A stretch of DNA of 49,970 bases from Clostridiales bacterium UBA4362 (GTDB lineage Bacteria; Bacillota; Clostridia; TANB77; CAG-508): contig DGSM01000009.1 in assembly GCA_002393975.1 (NCBI GenBank), positions 1-49,970 on the forward strand, read 5' to 3'. The position numbers were made by a program, and so were the translations under genes. Positions within the stretch are counted from its first letter, which is position 1. Each line of letters begins with the position of its first letter. Below, piece by piece: positions 2,539-43,786 of this stretch. The notes under the pieces were generated by a model that saw only the letters and a list, made by a program, of their open reading frames with translations, searched no databases and was not told where the DNA came from.

Positions 2539-3222
2539 TTACGATCCTGTTGCTACATATGGTCTAATTCTACCAGCAAAATCAGGGAAGTTTTGAGTTT
2601 GTAGAATAACTTTTCCAGGACCAGTTAATTTAGTTAAGAATAAACCTTCGCCGCCAAGGAATATGTTCTTAAGACCTTTAATTGTTTCAACCTCATATCT
2701 TACTGTAGGTTCGAATGCTACTAGGTTTCCAGTACTTATCTTTAATACCTCTCCTTGTTGTAACGTCTTTACAACTTGATCTCCATCTATTTCCATAAAT
2801 AGCATTCCATTTCCTTCTGCTCTTTGTAAAATGAAACCTTCACCACCAAATAATCCAGCTGAGAATTTTTTAGTAAACTCTACTTTTAGATTAATTGAAT
2901 TTTGAGCACATAGAAATGCTCCTTTTTGCATTATAATTCCTCCAGGAGCAGCTCCTAAATTAATTGGAAGAACACATCCAGGAACTGTTGATGAAAATGC
3001 TATAGTAGCATTATCTACTTGTGCTGTGTAAGTAGACATAAATATTGATTCACCTGTAAACATTCTTCCAAGACTTGCTCCTATTCCTCCTCTTGCATTA
3101 GTATTCATTTCAATTCCCTCTGATTGATAAAACATTCCACCAGATTGTGTAAAGAATTGCTCTCCTTTGTTTAAGACTAATTCAACTGCAGGTACTGTTT
3201 GTCCAACGATTTGATATCTCAT
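2539..3222 (-). CDS. AIM24 / TIGR00266 (DUF124) family protein
   Basis: The N-terminus MRYQIVGQTVPAVELVLNKGE..FFTQSGGM and the repeated G-rich beta pattern (GESIFMSTY, GGEGFILQR, GGEGLFLTKLTGPGKV) are typical of this family. AGGAG lies 7 nt upstream of the ATG, and the gene starts 18 nt after the upstream stop. Confidence 0.75.
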   Translation of the reverse strand: MRYQIVGQTVPAVELVLNKGEQFFTQSGGMFYQSEGIEMNTNARGGIGASLGRMFTGESIFMSTYTAQVDNATIAFSSTVPGCVLPINLGAAPGGIIMQKGAFLCAQNSINLKVEFTKKFSAGLFGGEGFILQRAEGNGMLFMEIDGDQVVKTLQQGEVLKISTGNLVAFEPTVRYEVETIKGLKNIFLGGEGLFLTKLTGPGKVILQTQNFPDFAGRIRPYVATGS

Positions 3223-3239: not shown

Positions 3240-5621
3240 TTAATAATCTATATCACTATTTTCTTTACTTCTATTAAAATATTGAGGATCTATTTCATCA
3301 GAAGAATAAACTCTTCTTTCACTTGTCTCCTCCACTTCTCCCTTATCGTTTGTTTTATAACTTTTGTGATTTATAGTAAATGCTCCTTTTCCTTTTTTAA
3401 ATTGTTCTAATGTTTCACCATTAATCGGATATAGTGCAGTTTTATAAAAACGCTTATCTTTAAAAATAGGATTTGAAAAATCAGCTATAATAGCTTTTCC
3501 ATTTCTTATGATTATATTATAAGCATGTCCAACGTTTTTATCTCCATTTTCATTTGATATATAACCATAAACCATCATTGGATTATATCCAAGAAAAGCT
3601 AGTAAGTTTTGGGCAAGAGCTGCTCTTTCAACACACATTGCTGTATTATTCCTTTTAAATTCTTTAACAGAAAAACTATTATCATCTTGATCAATATCTG
3701 CTTTAGATTCATAAAGCATGTTTCTATCATTGTCATTACCATGCATGCCGAAATAATCAATCAAAACTGCTTGTACTAATCTCATAACATTGTCATTACA
3801 TAACTTTCCATTATTTATTATATAATTTGGATCAATTTTTTTTGTTAAAAAAACTATTAATGATTTATAAGCATCTTTATCATCTAATCTAAATGAAGAC
3901 ATATCAACTGCAGTTTTCTTAATATTAGTTTTTGATGGTATATATCCAATTACTTCTGAGCTTTCCCCTCTTCCATTAATTCTAGAGCATCCTATTGAAA
4001 AGAAGGAAATCTCATTTCTACGCTCAGTTGCATTTTCCTCCAAAAATCTCAATCTATTATCTATAAACTCATCAATTTCATCATCTTTAAGAAGTAGCAT
4101 TTTTTGTATTAGATTAAATTCATTATCTAAATCTAGATTTAAACTCTTAGCAACTTTATTTGCCATTTCACTATAGAAATCATTATTTTTTTCATGGCAA
4201 AGCAATACTTGTTCATCATAGATAAAACCATTTGGTCTTCTTGATTTAGCCATTTCTCTAGCATAATCTTTGCTAGATAACATCTTTCTAAAACCTTCTT
4301 CAGCATCTTTAGGATTTATTCTTAAACTTTCTCCCATTGTCTTAAAGTTTATTGTATTAGAGAAAGATTTAATAAACTCATTCATAACACTATCAATTTG
4401 ATGTTGAGGTAAATTTCTTAAACGCATTTCATCTTGTAATACCTTTATACATGAACTAAAATGCATAAATTGACTATAAAAATGGTTCATGGTATCTTGT
4501 TTAAGTGCTTCAAATTTACCAACTGACATTGAATCATCTTGATTGTTTTTTATCTCTGCATTAAACTTATCTAATTCTGCTCTAACATCAAAATATGCAT
4601 CATCACACATCTCTCCTAAAATTGAGAAATCTTGTCTATGTGACATATTTTCAGTCATCCAGCCTGCATTCATAAGCTTTGCAACATTTTCACCCATTTG
4701 CTTTGCAAATGTTAATTCAAATGGCTTATTAACTGTTGAATGTTGTTCAGTAAATAAAGAAATTCTTTCTAAAGATTTAGAATCACCTTTTTTTACATAA
4801 TATTCAATATCTGAAATTCTAAAAGGACTTTCTACAATTCTTGTTGTTTGCCCATATCTTTGTCCAAGAGAATAAGAATTATCTACAAAGTCTGTAAATT
4901 CTTTAACAGTAAAATTATTTTCTTCAGCAAAATTTATAAATGTTGGATTATCGGTTATTCCCAATCTATCGAAATATTCGCTTATATATTCAGGTCTATA
5001 TCCTTCTAAAATTTCTTCATCATATGCTTTGCCATAGGTCTTATGTAAACGTTCTTTTATTTCTTTGTTCTCTTCTTCATAATCTGATTTTATTTTTCTA
5101 GAAGAAGATTTTATCTTAATAGGTAATCCTAATTTTCTTGCAACATCTAAAGGATATTCTTTAATTTGCTTAATAAATGGAACTTTAATACCAAAAGATT
5201 TTAGTTTTTGATTAACATCACCCTCAATTTCTAAGTCTTCAAGAGGGCTAGTTCCTCTTATTCTTATATCTGCTTTCTTTCCTGGAAATATAACTAAATT
5301 AACTGGATGTGTAGCATCAACATAATTAATGCTTCCATCTGTTATTACATATTGGGTTTTAGAGTTTGCTAATACATTGGATGCGTTTTCAGAATTAGAT
5401 AAATGCGAATCAACACCCTTAATATTAACAATTCTAGAATTATCAGTAATTCTAAATATTCCTCTGCCCATTGATGGCGTAGCAAAAGCAAGCTCTTCAA
5501 GCTTTAACTTTAGTGCATCTTCAAGACTTATTCTTTCAAATACTGCAAATCCATCAAGGTCTTTAATTTTACCTACTATTAGATTTCCATTTTTAATTAA
5601 TTCAACCAAATTTTCTTCCAT
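3240..5621 (-). CDS. Large (793 aa) uncharacterised cytoplasmic protein with a C-terminal transglutaminase-like (papain-fold) Cys-His-Asp core
   Basis: Long ORF with host-like codon usage, its own promoter, and GAGGT upstream of the ATG. No signal peptide or TM segment is visible. The C-terminal motif is AMC(663)VERAALAQNLLAFLGYNPMMVYGY...VGH(699)AYNIII...IIAD(714)FSNP. The first ~620 aa match no family I recognise. Confidence 0.8.
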   Translation of the reverse strand: MEENLVELIKNGNLIVGKIKDLDGFAVFERISLEDALKLKLEELAFATPSMGRGIFRITDNSRIVNIKGVDSHLSNSENASNVLANSKTQYVITDGSINYVDATHPVNLVIFPGKKADIRIRGTSPLEDLEIEGDVNQKLKSFGIKVPFIKQIKEYPLDVARKLGLPIKIKSSSRKIKSDYEEENKEIKERLHKTYGKAYDEEILEGYRPEYISEYFDRLGITDNPTFINFAEENNFTVKEFTDFVDNSYSLGQRYGQTTRIVESPFRISDIEYYVKKGDSKSLERISLFTEQHSTVNKPFELTFAKQMGENVAKLMNAGWMTENMSHRQDFSILGEMCDDAYFDVRAELDKFNAEIKNNQDDSMSVGKFEALKQDTMNHFYSQFMHFSSCIKVLQDEMRLRNLPQHQIDSVMNEFIKSFSNTINFKTMGESLRINPKDAEEGFRKMLSSKDYAREMAKSRRPNGFIYDEQVLLCHEKNNDFYSEMANKVAKSLNLDLDNEFNLIQKMLLLKDDEIDEFIDNRLRFLEENATERRNEISFFSIGCSRINGRGESSEVIGYIPSKTNIKKTAVDMSSFRLDDKDAYKSLIVFLTKKIDPNYIINNGKLCNDNVMRLVQAVLIDYFGMHGNDNDRNMLYESKADIDQDDNSFSVKEFKRNNTAMCVERAALAQNLLAFLGYNPMMVYGYISNENGDKNVGHAYNIIIRNGKAIIADFSNPIFKDKRFYKTALYPINGETLEQFKKGKGAFTINHKSYKTNDKGEVEETSERRVYSSDEIDPQYFNRSKENSDIDY

Positions 5622-5636
5622 AGTTACCTCAAAAGT

Positions 5637-5665
5637 ATTATACCAACTCGAAATTTAAAATACAA
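5637..5665 (-). promoter_or_regulatory. Sigma-A-type promoter of the 793-aa/AIM24 operon
   Basis: Minus strand reads TTGTAT-17 nt-TATAAT with an extended TGg immediately upstream of the -10. It lies between the islet terminator and the ATG at 5621. Confidence 0.5.
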
Positions 5666-5670
5666 TAAAA

Positions 5671-5702
5671 AAAGAAGAGAAGACTCAAATACGAGTCTCC
5701 CC
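5671..5702 (-). terminator. Intrinsic terminator of the PIN-domain gene (and probably of rho read-through)
   Basis: Minus strand GGAGACUC-GUAUUU-GAGUCUUC (8 bp including one G-U) followed by UCUUCUUUUUUUAU. Confidence 0.65.
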
Positions 5703-5721
5703 TTCCATTTTTCGTACATTA

Positions 5722-6624
5722 TTAACCTTTGATAATCAGCATTTTCTCTTCCTCGTCGATCTTGTACGGGAAGTTCTTGATATGTCCTTCAATAAAGTTC
5801 AACACAAATGTTCGATACTGAGGATTGCTAAGCTTAGTCTGCGGTTCATACACATCATGATACTGGTGTGTGTAGTTGACCTCGACATTCTGTTCATCAG
5901 AGATTTTGATGACTGTATATGCAGCAAAAGCCACATAAGCTTTACGATACTGATGGTTTTCCTTTCGGATTGCAACCAGAATCTGATCATTAAGCTTCAA
6001 TTCAAACCCATTTCCAGGATTCTTGAAACAATCATCACCTCTCATAATCCAGATTTCTCTGTCCTGCCGGTTGTTAGAGATTACAAGTTTTCCATCCCGC
6101 ATCGTAGCCTGGAAGAATTTTGCGACTCTCTTGGTTTTAGGCTGCGCAGTAGCCATACCATCCGGCCCCAGATAGACAACTTCACAATTGGAACCATTTA
6201 CTTCAGCGGCCAGTCTTTTGTCTGCAGTCCAGAGGATAACGTTATCCTTATGGTTCATGCAAAACTGAGCAATGCGATTGTCGGGATCTTTAAACAGGAA
6301 TCTTTCGCGAACATTATAAAAATGCTCTCGATCACCCTGGCTGATACCGAGCAACTTGCTTGCGTTCCACTTAGAGATATCCTCTCCAGTGAACTTCTGA
6401 AGTTTGTCAAGCTCCTCGCGAGTTGTTTCCAGAAGAATAATCTTATAACCTTCCTCGGTCATCCGATTAATTCTGCTGACAATATCAATAATTGCCATAG
6501 CAGAGGCATCAATTACGATGTCCTTCTTCTTTGTGGATCTGATACTGAGTCTGCCGAATATCCTAGCAAAATCTATCTTAGCTTTCCGCGTGTCTTCATA
6601 ATAAGTAGATCTGACCATTTCCAT
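5722..6624 (-). CDS. PIN-domain (YlaK/PhoH-type PIN) nuclease fused to an unassigned beta-rich C-terminal domain; atypical G+C and codon usage
   Basis: PIN acidic motifs occur in the canonical order: IVIDASAM, ILLETTREELDKLQK, KDPDNRIAQF, VILWTADKRLAAE. GGAGG lies 5 nt before ATG 6624; the upstream ATG at 6636 overlaps this SD. The gene has its own promoter and terminator. Confidence 0.8.
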   Translation of the reverse strand: MEMVRSTYYEDTRKAKIDFARIFGRLSIRSTKKKDIVIDASAMAIIDIVSRINRMTEEGYKIILLETTREELDKLQKFTGEDISKWNASKLLGISQGDREHFYNVRERFLFKDPDNRIAQFCMNHKDNVILWTADKRLAAEVNGSNCEVVYLGPDGMATAQPKTKRVAKFFQATMRDGKLVISNNRQDREIWIMRGDDCFKNPGNGFELKLNDQILVAIRKENHQYRKAYVAFAAYTVIKISDEQNVEVNYTHQYHDVYEPQTKLSNPQYRTFVLNFIEGHIKNFPYKIDEEEKMLIIKG

Positions 6625-6720
6625 ATGTACCTCCATAATTGTATCAATATATATTAATCAATGTACGACGTTCCGTTTTTTCAACGGAATAAATTTGCGT
6701 ATACATAACAATGCTATTCT

Positions 6721-6749
6721 ATTATACCACATTTTTGTAGATTTGTAAA
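6721..6749 (-). promoter_or_regulatory. Sigma-A-type promoter of the PIN-domain gene
   Basis: Minus strand TTTACA-17 nt-TATAAT preceded by TGg (extended -10). The -35 begins about 14 nt after the rho stop codon. Confidence 0.55.
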
Positions 6750-6761
6750 ATTTTTCTAGTT

Positions 6762-8123
6762 TTAGCTTAAAATTTGCTTTAATTTATTAATTAATTCTTT
6801 ATTATTAGATGTAGATAACATAGTGTTTATAAGGTCTTCATTAACTTTTTCTTGAGTTAAAGTAGAAAGAGCTTTCCTTAATTTATATATTATTTCTTGT
6901 TCATCAGATGAATATAAAAGGTCTTCTCTTCTAGTTCCAGACTTATTAATGTCTATAGCTGGGAATATACGTTTTTCTGATAGAGCTCTATTTAATACAA
7001 CTTCCATATTTCCAGTACCTTTAAACTCTTCAAATATAACATCGTCCATTCTACTTCCGGTTTCAATTAAGGCAGTTGCAAGTATTGTTAAACTTCCACC
7101 ATTCTCTATGTTTCTTGCTGCTCCAAAAAACTTTTTAGGATAATGAATTGCTGCAGGATCCAAACCTCCTGATAAAGTTCTTCCAGATGTAGGAATAGTT
7201 AAGTTATAAGCTCTAGCAAGTCTTGTAATACTATCAAGCAATATTACAACATCTTTTTTATTTTCTACTAATCTTTTTGCTCTTTCAAGAACCATTTCAG
7301 CAACTTTTACATGGTGCTCTGGAAGTTCATCAAAAGTTGAATATATAACTTCTCCATTAATACTTCTGACCATATCAGTTACTTCCTCTGGTCTTTCATC
7401 AATTAGTAAAACTATTAGATTAGTTTCAGGATTATTTATTGAAATTGAGTTTGCTATTTTCTTTAATAATGTTGTTTTTCCTACTTTTGGAGGGGCAACA
7501 ATCATACCTCTTTGTCCTTTACCTATTGGACATATTAGGTCTATCATTCTCATAGCTAAATCATTACTATCTTTTGTTTCCATACTTAACTTTTCTTCAG
7601 GATATATTGGAACCAATTCATCAAATTTAGTCCTTCTATAAGAAATTTCAGGTGGAATACCATTTACTTCTCCAACGTAAATAAGTGCAGGAAATCTCTC
7701 CCCTTCTTTTGGTTTTCTAGTTATTCCTCTTATTTTATCTCCATTATCTAATCTAAAACGTTTAATTTGAGTTGGAGAAACATATATATCTTCAGGTGTT
7801 GATAAATAGTTTTTACCACGTAAAAAGCCATAGCCATCAGGAAGTATTTCTAATACACCTTCTGCCATTTTATCATTTTCACCTAATTTAAGACCTTCCT
7901 CGATTCTAATATTATTATCTGAATCATTAGAAATATCTTCATTCAATTTTTCTTCTTTTAGGTTTTCATCATCCAGATTATTTGCATTGCTTTCATTTGA
8001 AGCTTTTTCACTTGATTCTAAAAACTCAATAAGCTCTTCTTTATTAAGTTTAGACACATTTGTAGCCCCTTTTTCTTTTGCCATTACTCTTAATTCAACA
8101 AGAGTATAATCGTCAAAATTCAT
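6762..8123 (-). CDS. rho: Transcription termination factor Rho
   Basis: Rho_N helix bundle ([23 protein letters not shown]), CSD-like RNA-binding domain ([14 protein letters not shown]), Walker [28 protein letters not shown]. Confidence 0.95.
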
Positions 8124-8291
8124 AAAGAATCTCCTTTCGAAATAAAATATAACATTAAATATTCAATTTTAAGTTTTTTAATATTGGGAATTTAAAAAAG
8201 ATTAAAAAATATTAAATAAAAAAATAATTAAAATAATATTTAAAACTATATTAATATTTTAACATTTTCTGGGAAAAAGTCAATTATTGTC

Positions 8292-8323
8292 GAAAAAAAG
8301 ACATGGATTATTTATCCATGTCT
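8292..8323 (-). terminator. Intrinsic terminator whose 5' arm is the last codons of the divIC-like gene
   Basis: Minus strand AGACAUGGAU-AAAUA-AUCCAUGUCU followed by UUUUUUU. The stop codon (8308-8310) sits at the stem/loop junction. Confidence 0.6.
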
Positions 8324-8574
8324 ACATATATTCTTTCATTTGGTAAATACATATCAAGTTTTTCTCTAGCCATTTCTTCAATATAATTGGTTGAATTAAT
8401 ATTATCTAATGTTTCAGATAGTTCATTATTTTTGATTTTAGCTTGTTCTATTTGATTATGATATTGATCTCCTTCTTTATTATACGCATTTAACATCTTT
8501 TGTTGGTTTATAAAAACAAAGATTGCATATATTATAAAGGCAAATAATATTAATTTAGGTACAATCCTTTTCAT
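8308..8574 (-). CDS. Septum formation initiator family protein (FtsB/DivIC-like)
   Basis: 88 aa with an N-terminal TM helix, a coiled coil, and the conserved tail IEEMAREKLDMYLPNERIY. GAGAGGA RBS. Confidence 0.75.
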   Translation of the reverse strand: MKRIVPKLILFAFIIYAIFVFINQQKMLNAYNKEGDQYHNQIEQAKIKNNELSETLDNINSTNYIEEMAREKLDMYLPNERIYVDMDK

Positions 8575-9397: not shown

Positions 9398-10591
9398 TTA
9401 CTTATTTAACAGTCTCAATGTATCTTTAGCTATCATAAGTTCCTCATTAGTAGGAACAACCCAAACTGGTATTGTTGAATCTTTAGAAGAAATACAAATT
9501 TCTTCTCCTCTAGTATTATTTTTCTCATCATCAATTTTAATACCCATATAATTTAAGTATTTGATAATACCAGCTCTAATTCTAGATTGATTTTCTCCAA
9601 TTCCTGCTGTAAATGTTATAACATCAATACCTTGCATTGAAACTGCATATGCTGCAATAAATTGAGCAACTTTGTATTCATAAAGATCCATAGCAGTTTT
9701 AGCATCTTCGTTTCCTTTATCTATAGCTTCTTCTATGTCTCTACAATCTGCAGATAAGCCTTTAGTTAAACCAAATAGACCAGATTCTTTATTTAGAATT
9801 TCTTCCAACTCACTTGGTTTTAACTTTTCATTTTCCATTAAATATGTAATAACAGATGGATCTAAATCGCCTGATCTGCTACACATAGGAATACCACCTA
9901 AAGGAGTAAGTCCCATAGATGTTTCTACAGATTCACCATTCATAATAGCACAAATGCTTGCTCCTTGTCCTAAGTGACAATTAACAATTTTTAAATCTTT
10001 AACTGATTTATTTAATAATTCTGCAATTCTATTTGCTACATATTTATGTGATGTTCCATGACAACCATATTTTCTTATATTATATTTTTCATAATATTTA
10101 TATGGAATTGGAAGCATATATCTTTCTTTAGGTATTGAATAATGAAAAGCAGTATCAAATACAGCAACCATTGGAATATTAGGCATTAGCTTTTGACAAG
10201 CTTTAATTCCCATGATTGCAGCAGGATTATGTAATGGTGCAAATGTTTTATATTCATCAATTTTACTTATAACATAATCATCTATTACAGCTGCATCAGA
10301 GAATGAATCAGCTCCATGAACTATTCTATGTCCTATTGCATCAATTTCATCCAAACTTTTTATTGCAGGATGTTCTTTATCAAGAATTTGTTTCAATGAG
10401 AAATCTAGTGCTTCTTTATGATTTTTTACAGGGTGTTCAAGGACTATTTTTTCGCCATTAATTTTATGCGTTAAGAAGGATTTTTCTCCTATTCTTTCAT
10501 AAGTACCTTTACAAATTAAACTTTCATTTTCCATATTAAGAAGTTGATACTTAAGTGAAGAACTTCCGCAATTAATAACTAAAACTTTCAT
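9398..10591 (-). CDS. ackA: Acetate/propionate-family kinase, distal tandem paralogue
   Basis: INCGSSSLKYQ, GHRIVHG, APLHNP, GCHGTSHKY, SRSGDLDPS, VPTNEELMIA. Confidence 0.88.
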   Translation of the reverse strand: MKVLVINCGSSSLKYQLLNMENESLICKGTYERIGEKSFLTHKINGEKIVLEHPVKNHKEALDFSLKQILDKEHPAIKSLDEIDAIGHRIVHGADSFSDAAVIDDYVISKIDEYKTFAPLHNPAAIMGIKACQKLMPNIPMVAVFDTAFHYSIPKERYMLPIPYKYYEKYNIRKYGCHGTSHKYVANRIAELLNKSVKDLKIVNCHLGQGASICAIMNGESVETSMGLTPLGGIPMCSRSGDLDPSVITYLMENEKLKPSELEEILNKESGLFGLTKGLSADCRDIEEAIDKGNEDAKTAMDLYEYKVAQFIAAYAVSMQGIDVITFTAGIGENQSRIRAGIIKYLNYMGIKIDDEKNNTRGEEICISSKDSTIPVWVVPTNEELMIAKDTLRLLNK

Positions 10592-10642: not shown

Positions 10643-11842
10643 TTATTTACCTTGTACTAGATCTCTAGTATCTCTAGCAATCATTAGTTCCTCATTAGTA
10701 GGAACAACATAAACTTCTACTTTTGAATCAGGTGCAGATATCTTAGCTTCTACAGCGAAAGCATCTTTGTTTGCTTTCTCATCAAGTTTTACTCCTAAGA
10801 ATTCTAGTTGTTTACAAATTTCAGCTCTTGACTCAGCTCCTCTTTCTCCAACTCCTGCAGTAAATGTAATAACATCTACACCATTCATAGCAACAACACA
10901 TCTTGCAACATATGCTGCTATTACATAATGATAGTGGTCTAATGCAAGTTTTGCTCTATGATTGCCTTCAGCTAGAGCCATCTCTATATCTCTGTTATCA
11001 GCTGAAATTCCAGAAATTCCTAGAAGACCAGATTTTTTATTTATTAAAATATCTGCTTCATCTGGAGTCATGTTTTCTTTCTTCATAATAAATGTAATAA
11101 CAGATGGGTCAATATCTCCTGTTCTAGAACCCATAGGAATACCAGCTACTGGAGATAATCCCATTGAAGTTTCAACACATTTGCCATCTTGTATAGCACA
11201 AATACTTGCACCTTGTCCAATGTGACAATTAACAATTTTTAAATCTTCAATTGGCTTATCTAATATTTCAGCAATTCTTTGTGAAACATATTTATGTGAG
11301 GTTCCGTGAGCACCATATTTTCTTATACCATATTTTTCATAATACTCATATGGTATAGGATAAATATATCTATGCTCTGGTAATGTTTGATGAAAAGCAG
11401 TATCAAATACAACTGCCATTGGTGTATCAGGCATAATCTTCTTGCAAGCATCAATTCCTAATAATGCAGGTGGATTATGAAGTGGTGCAAGAGATGCTAA
11501 TTCTTCAATATCTTTAATTACTTTATCATCAACTAATACTGAGTGGCTAAATTTGTCTCCACCTTGTACTATTCTATGGCCAATACCATCAATTTCTTTT
11601 AAATCTTTAATAACGCCATATTCTGAATTTGTAATTTGGTCTAAAACTAGCTTTAGAGCTTCAGCATGATTTTTAACATGCTCCTCTAATTTAATCTTTT
11701 GTCCATTAACTTTATGAGTTAAGAAAGATTTTTCACTTCCTATTCTCTCAAAGTTTCCTGAGCACATTGTTTCTTCTGTTGTCATATCGATTACTTGATA
11801 TTTTAAAGAAGAACTACCGCAGTTTAATACTAAAATTTTCAT
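10643..11842 (-). CDS. ackA: Acetate kinase, proximal tandem paralogue
   Basis: LNCGSSSLKYQ, GHRIVQGG, APLHNP, GAHGTSHKY, SRTGDIDPS, VPTNEELMIA. Roughly 60% identical by eye to the downstream copy. Confidence 0.92.
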   Translation of the reverse strand: MKILVLNCGSSSLKYQVIDMTTEETMCSGNFERIGSEKSFLTHKVNGQKIKLEEHVKNHAEALKLVLDQITNSEYGVIKDLKEIDGIGHRIVQGGDKFSHSVLVDDKVIKDIEELASLAPLHNPPALLGIDACKKIMPDTPMAVVFDTAFHQTLPEHRYIYPIPYEYYEKYGIRKYGAHGTSHKYVSQRIAEILDKPIEDLKIVNCHIGQGASICAIQDGKCVETSMGLSPVAGIPMGSRTGDIDPSVITFIMKKENMTPDEADILINKKSGLLGISGISADNRDIEMALAEGNHRAKLALDHYHYVIAAYVARCVVAMNGVDVITFTAGVGERGAESRAEICKQLEFLGVKLDEKANKDAFAVEAKISAPDSKVEVYVVPTNEELMIARDTRDLVQGK

Positions 11843-43203: not shown

Positions 43204-43234
43204 TAAAAAAAACCCTAGAATCATCTTCTAGGGT
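43204..43234 (-). terminator. Intrinsic terminator of the small membrane-protein gene
   Basis: Minus strand ACCCUAGAA-GAUGA-UUCUAGGGU followed by UUUUUUUU. Confidence 0.65.
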
Positions 43235-43274
43235 CAGTACAGTTGAAAAGGTTACATATTTGTTTTGACGAGTA

Positions 43275-43661
43275 TTACTTGAATGCAAAATGCCAGAAGA
43301 GGAATTGTGAACCACCTCCCATAAGGATAGTGATAAACACAAAATAAAAAATCATCTTCAGGTCTTCCTTAGTTACTTTTGCCTTTGTCTCGTGATATTC
43401 TTCAATTGTTGATTTGCTTAAACCAACGAGCATGAACAGGCAAACAATAGTTACATAATAGGAAAAGAACCATCCAACACAAGCTGCAACAATCCGTCCA
43501 GTAGAAAAGCCGTGTTTGTACAAATACATCCCAATGGCGATTTCGGAAATAAACCAAATCACCAAGGAAATGATAATTGATGCGACTCTTAAATGGTACC
43601 AGAAATTCTGCCTCTTAATCATCTTCCGATATTCTTCATCTGTCATCTCATTGCGGGACAT
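43275..43661 (-). CDS. Small (128 aa) 3-TM membrane protein of unknown function with atypical codon usage
   Basis: GGAGG lies 7 nt before ATG 43661. Three hydrophobic helices. It uses codons (CGC, CGG, AAG, CTG, CTC, TTC, ATC, GCC) that the neighbours avoid. Confidence 0.7.
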   Translation of the reverse strand: MSRNEMTDEEYRKMIKRQNFWYHLRVASIIISLVIWFISEIAIGMYLYKHGFSTGRIVAACVGWFFSYYVTIVCLFMLVGLSKSTIEEYHETKAKVTKEDLKMIFYFVFITILMGGGSQFLFWHFAFK

Positions 43662-43702
43662 AAGCACGCCTCCTTTTCTCATGAATCTTTTCAATATACT
43701 AC

Positions 43703-43722: not shown

Positions 43723-43754
43723 TTTAATTATACAATAGATTTACATAATTAGCA

Positions 43755-43786
43755 AGAAAAAATGGGTTACTATTTTGTAACCCATT
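43755..43786 (-). terminator. Intrinsic terminator of glgP whose 5' arm is the last glgP codons
   Basis: Minus strand AAUGGGUUAC-AAAAUA-GUAACCCAUU followed by UUUUUCUU. The stop codon (43770-43772) lies inside the hairpin. Confidence 0.6.

Follow-up and report, generated by a model that had tools for sequence, protein, structure and literature searches.

A solitary PIN_4-type nuclease gene with atypical, non-decaying codon usage in a conserved slot downstream of rho in uncultured gut Clostridia

The stretch of DNA analyzed here at its full length of 49,970 nucleotides (the window) comes from contig DGSM01000009.1 of Clostridiales bacterium UBA4362, and contains, downstream of rho, a gene for a 300-amino-acid protein in which a PIN_4-type nuclease domain is predicted to be fused to a well-folded C-terminal domain without known relatives. 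This gene, hereafter the PIN gene, is a long-term resident: all related lineages recovered have it in one and the same slot, between rho and a gene denoted p792. Purifying selection acts on it, yet it is the fastest-diverging gene of its neighborhood, and its alleles have been exchanged between lineages. The coding sequence is G+C-rich and depleted of A-ending codons, and this composition is not decaying toward that of the host. We tentatively favor, with a probability of about 0.4, the interpretation that the product is a conflict-type ribonuclease, i.e., a toxin or an abortive-infection-like effector that is restrained in cis, and not a housekeeping enzyme. All coordinates are positions in the window, and the PIN gene and its neighbors rho, p792 and AIM24 are located on the minus strand.

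As judged from profile matches, predicted alpha/beta/alpha PIN fold and four acidic residues, the protein belongs to the PIN-like superfamily, PIN_4 group (PF13638 / COG1875). By itself, the window protein matches Pfam PIN_4 with E = 7e-4 and 20.3 bits, which is 1.6 bits below the 21.9-bit cutoff; therefore, the protein is assigned by evidence from its family and from structure. Pfam PIN_4 is matched by 28 of 37 homologs (best E = 4e-8) and a PHROG annotated as PhoH-like by 25 of the 37, and many homologs carry a precomputed PF13638 annotation; the window protein had no match in NCBIfam, PADLOC or PHROGs. Comparison of the family profile to PDB entry 1o4w gave E = 9e-6 with the four acidic positions aligned, such that the family motifs D-A-S, E-L-D, P-D-D and T-x-D fall on the acidic positions of 1o4w. 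An AlphaFold2 model computed from 90 sequences has a mean predicted local distance difference test score (pLDDT) of 86, with values over 90 in both domains (approximately 90-96 in the PIN domain, residues 34-152), and a predicted template modeling score (pTM) of 0.49; an earlier model from 11 sequences (pLDDT 50) was too poor for use. Foldseek matched the N-terminal half to SMG6/EST1A, AF0591, MJ1533, TTHA0540, Nmd4 and PINA with a probability of 1.0, and in BFVD to PhoH-family and PIN proteins.

The original prediction, made from the sequence alone, had recognized four acidic PIN motifs in this region, and all four hold. They contribute the tetrad D39, E71, D115 and D135, which is accompanied by S41 and T133. 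The 90-sequence alignment shows no exception at D39, E71 and D115, and D135 is retained in at least 90% of sequences; at the syntenic locus, none of the nine alleles has lost a member of the tetrad. The PIN_4.COG1875 group comprises SMG6, Swt1 and PhoH2, has a four-Asp/Glu site, and these enzymes act as RNases (Matelska et al., PMC5499597). With its complete tetrad, the PIN gene apparently encodes an active, metal-dependent PIN_4-type endonuclease domain. The protein had been described as a YlaK-type PIN nuclease, and this is adequate for the subgroup of the PIN domain, but not for the whole protein: there is no PhoH ATPase, and hence it is not a member of YlaK/PhoH2. The disordered segment preceding the PIN domain (residues 1-33) is only 12-45% identical in alleles whose PIN domains are 32-91% identical, and the P0005/L104 allele has a 25-residue insertion in it.

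The C-terminal domain is modeled with pLDDT of 92-98, is conserved throughout the wider family and has conserved positions L209, D213, F233, Y236, N246, Y270 and F273. It was earlier considered beta-rich and unassignable, and searches of Pfam, of PDB by profile and of Foldseek databases, including BFVD, likewise returned no credible match. With respect to specific folds, Pfam searches with the protein and with 24 C-terminal domains detected no TRAM, and Foldseek no TRAM/OB match; there was no PhoH or P-loop match in Pfam, NCBIfam or PDB, and the C-terminal domain had no hit to a nucleotide-binding fold. A levivirus/PP7 coat-like fold is not supported: it reached a Foldseek probability of at most 0.3, and hhalign against the MS2 coat sequence gave 0.2%. 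The matches to CAP-Gly, "Ika8" and Phage_VG64, sub-threshold or summed over repeats and scattered, were rejected.

The PIN gene occupies the same rho-PIN-p792(-AIM24) slot in 19 of 19 related metagenomic contigs, which represent approximately nine distinct alleles; synteny is seen in L001-L012, L098-L102 and L104. Where the contig extends far enough, the gene order is ackA-237aa-divIC-rho-PIN-p792-AIM24. A search of 5.8 billion clusters yielded 14 close homologs, for which an automatic JGI label, "FCF1", is the sole name, and a metagenome scan anchored at p792 added two syntenic loci; no empty rho-p792 junction was found among the related contigs recovered, including those from the p792-anchored scan. 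The nearest species representatives by Rho are metagenome-assembled genomes of uncultured gut Clostridia, including Clostridium sp. CAG:508, with 70-73% identity. These nearest relatives in GTDB keep divIC-rho and have no homolog of PIN, p792 or AIM24 within 10 kb downstream, and the three-gene block is therefore specific to the clade of the window, which, as far as two peptide patterns can tell, has no member in that collection. A scan of GTDB representatives with the PIN alignment found no relative by means of these two patterns, which are typical of the close clade and which distant relatives could escape. No donor was detected in the GTDB scan or in phage, plasmid and IMG/VR sequences.

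The ratio of nonsynonymous to synonymous substitution rates (dN/dS) of the PIN gene is 0.07-0.13. The amino acid identities of Rho and of the PIN protein to those of the window are, respectively, 100 and 97% in L005, 94 and 85% in L003, 91 and 76% in L001, 98 and 58% in L098 (where Rho is compared over its C-terminal 236 residues), 89 and 37% in L101, and 85 and 39% in L102. Nucleotide identities between the window and L003 are similar along the locus (rho 88.0, PIN 84.3, p792 83.5%). The comparison with L104 is different: rho is 98.4% identical and the promoter with the leader 96.3%, the open reading frame (ORF) drops to 86.6%, and the downstream spacer and p792 are at 95.0 and 95.4%, respectively. 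The L104 ORF is a third allele type, about equidistant from the types of the window and L003, and this is an allele replacement bounded by conserved regulatory regions. In most pairs the divergence of the PIN gene follows that of its flanks; in L098 and L104 it is decoupled from them.

The claim that the gene forms a G+C-rich islet was borne out by computation. In 400-nucleotide sliding windows, G+C is 0.42-0.45 within the ORF, compared to approximately 0.26-0.31 in the flanks, and the G+C content of third codon positions (GC3) is 0.458, versus a mean of 0.132 (standard deviation 0.023, maximum 0.197) for the 36 other ORFs of the window (z = 14.4). The flanking intergenic regions have G+C of 0.26 and 0.30; thus, the anomaly is confined to the coding sequence. 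The use of codons avoided by the neighbors (CGG/CGC, AAG, CTG/CTC, TTC and ATC) turned out to be stronger than originally stated. Expressed as percentages of the codons of each amino acid, the host and PIN gene values are 57 and 0 for Leu TTA, 13 and 0 for Leu CTA, 97 and 0 for Gln CAA, 50 and 0 for Pro CCA, 30 and 0 for Ser TCA, and 40 and 7 for Ile ATA; conversely, they are 0 and 50 for Leu CTG+CTC, 6 and 48 for Ile ATC, 20 and 59 for Lys AAG, 16 and 47 for Phe TTC, and approximately 1 and 33 for Arg CGG+CGC. The shift is therefore codon-specific, with A-ending codons purged and T-ending codons little changed. TTA and CTA are also at 0% in the pooled alleles of the window, L003, L001 and L099. 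Six alleles that are 70-97% identical to that of the window have GC3 of 0.40-0.50, and divergent alleles have 0.24-0.32; every PIN allele exceeds the flanking genes (0.11-0.20). As to decoding capacity for G/C-ending codons, we found no tRNA genes within the window.

The simplest explanation of such a composition is recent acquisition by this genome, with G+C richness as a donor trace that has not yet been ameliorated, and this was the original interpretation. Consistent with it are the strength of the composition and codon deviation and its confinement to the ORF, the presence of a second G+C-rich single-gene islet in the same window, and the nearest GTDB relatives, which have no such gene within 10 kb downstream of rho. 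This explanation is nevertheless largely refuted. No related contig recovered lacks the gene in this slot, even where protein identity is as low as 37%, and the ORF co-diverges with its flanks: the synonymous divergence (dS) between the window and L003 is 0.67 for the PIN gene and 0.34-0.84 for six neighbors, i.e., comparable to or above that of the flanks. Because of the shared slot and the co-divergence, recent acquisition is unsupported. Furthermore, the proportion of synonymous differences (pS) relative to L001 is 0.70, close to saturation, yet GC3 is 0.40-0.46. The original prediction had regarded homologs at the same locus in relatives, with host-like codon usage, as speaking against it: the shared locus was found, but host-like codon usage was not, GC3 of the homologs being above that of the flanks.

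The direction of evolution was examined with polarized synonymous changes. If the gene were drifting toward the host equilibrium (GC3 of 0.14), approximately 84% of strong/weak changes, or about 5:1, are expected to be GC-to-AT. On the branches to the window and L003 we observed no GC-to-AT excess, with 15 GC-to-AT versus 28 AT-to-GC changes (P = 7e-13), and ongoing amelioration was rejected on this basis. When L005 was substituted for the window, the L005 and L003 branches had 21 GC-to-AT versus 32 AT-to-GC changes. On the youngest branch the numbers are 13 and 7, which is consistent with AT-ward mutations being filtered out with time.

High GC3 could in principle be a neutral by-product of recombination, resulting from GC-biased gene conversion or from repeated import from hosts with higher G+C. 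The allele swap bounded by the conserved leader and the downstream intergenic region is in line with this idea, as are the decoupled divergence in L098 and L104 and the top GC3 that four of five distant family members have in their own neighborhoods. However, the large rise of GC3 (from 0.13 to 0.46) ends exactly at the bounds of the ORF, and the equally recombining leader is at 0.26. In addition, the purging of A-ending codons with retention of T-ending ones is not expected from a simple AT-to-GC drive, and all family members with available DNA are found in genomes of approximately 26-29% G+C, with no host of higher G+C among them. We consider this explanation improbable.

A further possibility is that codon choice keeps open an overlapping antisense gene. 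In the window, a 291-codon ORF on the plus strand (5782..6657) is codon-aligned with the PIN frame, and in L003 this antisense frame is likewise entirely free of stops. The antisense ORF stays open because the sense frame lacks TTA, CTA and TCA, which read as stops in the antisense direction. This possibility is essentially excluded, since there are three stops in L001 and one in L005, four TTA/TCA codons in L104, each of which is an antisense stop, and 13 to 18 of these in the divergent alleles. Moreover, CAA, CCA and ATA are also purged though they are irrelevant to antisense stops, and a scan of the plus strand for promoters and Shine-Dalgarno sites gave nothing beyond 9/12 consensus matches, which is the chance rate.

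The second G+C-rich single-gene islet is located at 43275-43682 on the minus strand and has GC3 of 0.44, compared to the host mean of 0.13. The ORF in the automated list is 135 amino acids long; a likelier start is the ATG at 43661, giving approximately 128 amino acids, and the product resembles a membrane protein by eye. Also by eye, there is a promoter-like sequence at about 43725-43755 and a terminator-like sequence at about 43205-43235. Pfam matches of this ORF are sub-threshold only and, unlike the PIN gene, it uses TTA, TCA and CAA.

The features of the PIN gene cassette are listed in Table 1. A self-contained unit with its own promoter, leader, Shine-Dalgarno site and terminator had been proposed, and each of these elements was found at or very close to the expected place. 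The likely start is the ATG at 6624-6622, with GGAGG located five nucleotides upstream. The extended site GGAGGT and the start ATG are invariant at all orthologous loci, and homologs are mostly 298-305 amino acids long and start at the equivalent ATG. The promoter scores 11/12 with TG in the consensus scan, begins 12 nucleotides past the rho stop codon (6764-6762), and has both hexamers unchanged at 8 orthologous loci, where protein identity ranges only from 37 to 97%. A scan between the rho stop and this promoter found no terminator-like site, as had been noticed earlier, and read-through from rho is therefore possible. The intergenic regions beside the gene, 137 and 100 nucleotides long, contain no partner ORF and leave no room for one, in agreement with the earlier statement that an antitoxin-sized partner is missing.

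Table 1. Features of the PIN gene cassette, domains of its product and neighboring genes, with coordinates in the window.
Feature	Position	Strand	Remarks
ORF as called in the automated ORF listing	5722..6636	(-)	
Coding sequence	5722..6624	(-)	300 amino acids plus stop codon (5724-5722); G+C 0.416, GC3 0.458
N-terminal segment, residues 1-33	6526..6624	(-)	Most allele-variable part; pLDDT < 50 over residues 1-30
Predicted PIN_4-type PIN nuclease domain, residues 34-152	6169..6525	(-)	Pfam, family profile, Foldseek; acidic tetrad
Predicted C-terminal domain, residues 171-300	5725..6114	(-)	Seven beta-strands (173-255), three helices (259-299)
Sigma-70-type promoter	6721..6749	(-)	TTTACA 6749-6744, 17-nucleotide spacer, extended -10 TGgTATAAT 6729-6721
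5' leader, approximately 85 nucleotides	6625..6714	(-)	Boxes and GGAGGT conserved across loci
Leader 5' box GCATTGTTATGTATAC	6714-6699	(-)	Conserved across orthologous loci
Leader stem-loop TTCCGTT/GAAAA/AACGGAA	6689-6671	(-)	Fold -8 kcal/mol, z = -2.6
Leader box TCGTACATTGAT	6668-6657	(-)	Conserved across orthologous loci
Shine-Dalgarno site GGAGG	6634-6630	(-)	Conserved across orthologous loci
Intrinsic terminator	5663..5706	(-)	15-pair stem 5706..5673 with 6 G-C pairs, then T-run
rho	6762..8123	(-)	Upstream neighbor at all syntenic loci; context
p792	3240-5621	(-)	No family assignment; co-inherited downstream neighbor, host-like GC3
AIM24-family gene	2539-3222	(-)	Co-inherited downstream neighbor, 17 nucleotides downstream of p792; host-like GC3

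The box GCAnTGTTATG...AC, the CATTG box, GGAGGT and the promoter hexamers are kept even at 37% protein identity. The hairpin of the leader is found at a constant position in seven lineages with differing stem sequences, namely TTCCGTT/AACGGAA, TTCGCC/GGCGAA, TCTCGC/GCGAGA, TTTCCGGCC/GGCTGGAAA, TTCTG/CAGAA and CCCC/GGGG; RNAalifold applied to a MAFFT alignment of the leaders was uninformative, the stems being misaligned. No Rfam family matched the leader, and an nhmmer profile of the promoter and leader recovered syntenic loci only in 1.44 Mb. The leader also contains an upstream ORF of 20 codons (window 6646-6706, minus strand; MYTQIYSVEKTERRTLINIY), whose ATG (6706-6704) lies within a conserved box and which spans the hairpin and ends with TGA at 6646-6644. 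We rejected it as a conserved element, since by inspection its frame and length are not kept in L003; with no Shine-Dalgarno site of its own, it is probably not translated.

The neighbor p792 diverges fast (55-92% identity) and is clade-specific like the PIN gene. No relatives were found in Pfam, PADLOC, PHROG or PDB, and its sole match is a weak one to the N-acetyltransferase family PF00797 (residues 640-715, E = 0.03), in a region surrounding a Cys...His...Asp-like motif seen by eye. A functional link of the PIN gene to p792/AIM24 was considered and rejected, because distant homologs of p792 have no PIN neighbor and distant relatives of the PIN gene have no p792. On the far side of AIM24, bordering the clade-specific block, positions 1200-2200 have very low G+C (0.165-0.195) and few long ORFs. 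On the other side of the locus, two tandem acetate kinase paralogs (9398-10591 and 10643-11842, both on the minus strand), approximately 59% identical, are located beside pta, and this arrangement is kept in a related contig (L001:4820-7254).

An exhaustive profile search against 1.84 billion representatives of 50%-identity clusters detected 182 family members, most of which align over both domains; approximately 100 members are present in the annotated database. Together they form a rare, unnamed family of solitary genes at unrelated loci in uncultured gut Clostridia of about 28% G+C. Many members have an N-terminal extension of approximately 60-90 residues, which is helix-turn-helix-like and in one case matches HTH_24. 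Five distant members on long contigs, all from genomes of approximately 26-29% G+C, are solitary and located at five different loci: one lies between ftsY and glmM; one in a serine-recombinase/Bro-N islet by which a murA-like gene is split; one between DUF3006 and fur, 1.7 kb downstream of a tRNA gene; one between pyrBI and a penicillin-binding protein gene; and one in the interval from vanW to a cation ATPase gene, directly 3' of a tRNA gene. The four of them that have the highest GC3 of their own neighborhood have values of 0.19-0.41.

Some details of these loci should be mentioned. The islet at L095:5619-11459 is about 5 kb long, cuts the murA-like (EPSP_synthase-fold) gene into pieces of 215 and 118 amino acids, and contains a large serine recombinase, a Bro-N protein, a 54-amino-acid ORF and the family member; it is the sole context examined with recognizable mobility genes. 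A tRNA-like sequence at L111:5710-5790, by eye probably tRNA-Lys, lies immediately upstream of the family member of that contig. In L096, where the tRNA gene is at 8253-8326, the adjacent gene with a metallo-beta-lactamase fold is also G+C-rich (GC3 of 0.36), which suggests a small foreign islet beside the tRNA. The upstream regions of the five distant members (L094:9740-10000, L095:9740-10000, L096:9740-10000, L109:5660-6000 and L111:5660-6000) have, by eye, a promoter, a short G+C-rich hairpin and then a purine box AAAAGAAAGGAG. The promoter is a near-consensus TTTACA-17-TGnTATAAT in four of the five, and the purine box, (T/C)AAAAGAAAGG(A/C)G, usually followed by TTTTAA, is located approximately 60-75 nucleotides before the annotated start. 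An Rfam scan of three of these loci (L094-L096) at gathering thresholds returned no match. That the promoters and leaders of these distant members are homologous to those of the window clade could not be demonstrated (best nhmmer E = 3.4), and the resemblance is organizational only. Three aberrant sequences were encountered: P0243, 330 amino acids long, contains HAD-hydrolase Pfam domains and is 60% identical to the PIN protein over 28% of the latter, and may represent either a fusion or a chimeric gene prediction; P0014, which aligns to the family N-terminally only and then diverges as if frameshifted, and the truncated P0013 could be pseudogenes or assembly errors.

Comparison to known systems helps to place the family. 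PhoH2/YlaK (PIN_4.COG1875) and archaeal PINA (PDB 5f4h/5yww), the top Foldseek hit, have a PIN domain of the same subfamily and similarly join an N-terminal nuclease to a second domain in one polypeptide. They differ in that the protein studied here is 300 amino acids long, compared to approximately 430-450, and its C-terminal 130 residues are a beta-sheet with helices instead of a PhoH domain, which is a P-loop RNA-helicase ATPase. Structurally, the PIN half is closest to SMG6/EST1A and Swt1 (E of about 1e-5, template modeling score to the target of about 0.6), and the acidic site of SMG6 (D1251, E1282, D1353, D1392; PMC5499597) corresponds to D39, E71, D115 and D135. However, these are eukaryotic domains within large proteins of nonsense-mediated decay or quality control of messenger ribonucleoproteins, identity is only 16-19%, and there is no relationship beyond the PIN core. 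YacL-type PIN-TRAM proteins (PIN.COG4956) and archaeal PIN-KH proteins (MJ1533, 3i8o; TTHA0540, 3ix7) are solitary proteins with a PIN domain and a small, beta-rich C-terminal domain, and their PIN domains were recovered by the Foldseek and PDB-profile searches. In contrast to them, no TRAM or KH match was found here, the comparison with the YacL type, which is defined by transmembrane segments, being one of the C-terminal domain; furthermore, YacL is broadly conserved in Firmicutes, whereas the present family is rare, fast-evolving and compositionally foreign.

Toxin systems offer another set of parallels. CapRel-SJ46 is a trigger-sensing fused effector, and EzeT is a single-polypeptide toxin-antitoxin (reviewed in PMC4826407). 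Both resemble the PIN gene in being solitary genes with a toxin-type catalytic domain, a second domain and no partner; the catalytic domain has another fold in either case, that of a kinase for EzeT and of a pyrophosphokinase for CapRel, and autoinhibition of the PIN protein is purely inferred. VapC toxins are PIN-fold, Mg/Mn-dependent RNases that often cleave tRNA, rRNA or mRNA (PMC5499597). In addition to the fold, they share fast evolution and patchy distribution with the PIN family. In contrast to VapBC, there is no adjacent antitoxin gene at any of the six kinds of locus, and the protein is twice the size of VapC, has an extra domain and falls in the PIN_4 subgroup, not in PF01850.

We return to the interpretation that we favor, a conflict-type ribonuclease restrained in cis. 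In the absence of a separate antitoxin, restraint would be exerted in cis: the C-terminal domain may be an autoinhibitory, target-recognition or trigger-sensing module, and the conserved leader hairpin a possible autoregulatory site. The activated PIN domain would cut single-stranded RNA (mRNA, tRNA or rRNA), like characterized PIN_4 and VapC enzymes. The atypical codons would date back to an acquisition by the ancestor of the clade, with a donor of moderate G+C, and would since then have been maintained by selection on the ORF. Fast divergence, the allele swap, patchy distribution and the single copy in a serine-recombinase islet fit a conflict gene circumstantially; this islet and the tRNA genes beside other members hint at mobility.

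Several observations weigh against this interpretation. The locus is not a recognizable defense island, the neighbors being rho, divIC, ackA and pta, and presence in every related lineage together with dN/dS of about 0.1 also fits a lineage-specific housekeeping RNase. The near-consensus promoter and perfect Shine-Dalgarno site point to considerable constitutive expression, surprising in a toxin that lacks a guard. Searches of 50,697 phage genomes, 72,556 plasmids and IMG/VR recovered no family member; in PADLOC-DB v2 the window protein had no hit at E <= 0.001, and across the family PADLOC gave only single-member hits, to PIN-containing CARF models. It should be noted that the lineages are metagenomic contigs, that the polarization of substitutions is based on parsimony with few sites, a distant outgroup and metagenomic sampling, and that the arrangement of the two domains relative to each other is uncertain in the structural model, as indicated by its pTM.

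In the chief competing explanation, the product would be a lineage-specific RNase with a housekeeping or regulatory role, expressed with rho and autoregulated via its leader, and the C-terminal domain would bind RNA. Autoregulation at the mRNA level is known from RNase E and RNase III. Presence at this locus in each related lineage recovered, purifying selection, the strong promoter and perfect Shine-Dalgarno site without a terminator between rho and the gene, and the conserved leader, in which hairpin pairing is kept while the sequence changes, are all in line with such an enzyme; the combination of PIN and RNA-binding domains is also known (PIN-TRAM, PIN.COG4956, PMC5499597; PIN plus KH, MJ1533 / 3i8o). 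Conversely, divergence is far above that of every housekeeping neighbor (37% identity versus 89% for Rho) and alleles are swapped. The gene is absent within 10 kb downstream of rho in the nearest GTDB relatives and from the pattern-limited GTDB scan; the family is tiny, patchy and found at unrelated loci. Codon usage is foreign and unlike that of a core gene, and the C-terminal domain matches no known RNA-binding fold. On balance, we regard a housekeeping RNase as rather unlikely, though a serious competitor.

A more speculative extension of the conflict-type ribonuclease may be called self-immune coding: selection would keep the ORF relatively rich in G+C and free of the A-ending codons that dominate in the host, so that the mRNA is insulated from its own nuclease. 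The targets would be tRNAs with U34 anticodons that read TTA, CAA, CCA, ATA and others, or AU-rich single-stranded RNA. Translation of the host and of AT-rich phages would collapse, while synthesis of the enzyme itself would go on; the leader hairpin would be an autoregulatory or trigger-responsive switch and the C-terminal domain a sensor. Codon-dependent effects of tRNA-cleaving toxins have precedent (PMC7033543). The use of TTA by the divergent alleles and by most of the distant relatives weakens the generality of this idea, which we consider a long shot.

PIN nucleases are mainly known as antitoxin-paired VapC toxins or as modules of large RNA-surveillance proteins, and what is new here is a solitary protein of two domains, an architecture in which PIN_4 nucleases had not been described. 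The interest of the gene rests less on its being an islet than on its non-ameliorating codons, its hypervariability in a conserved slot and its unassigned folded domain. That codon usage is kept through saturation of synonymous sites, despite a strong AT mutational bias, counters the assumption that foreign genes ameliorate and provides a concrete, testable case of selection on the synonymous sites of a single gene. If the product is instead a clade-specific RNA-processing enzyme, the codon puzzle persists. If it is a cis-regulated toxin or defense RNase, the family would represent a new single-gene architecture with a new sensor or inhibitor domain, and would suggest that nucleotide composition may serve as self-protection.

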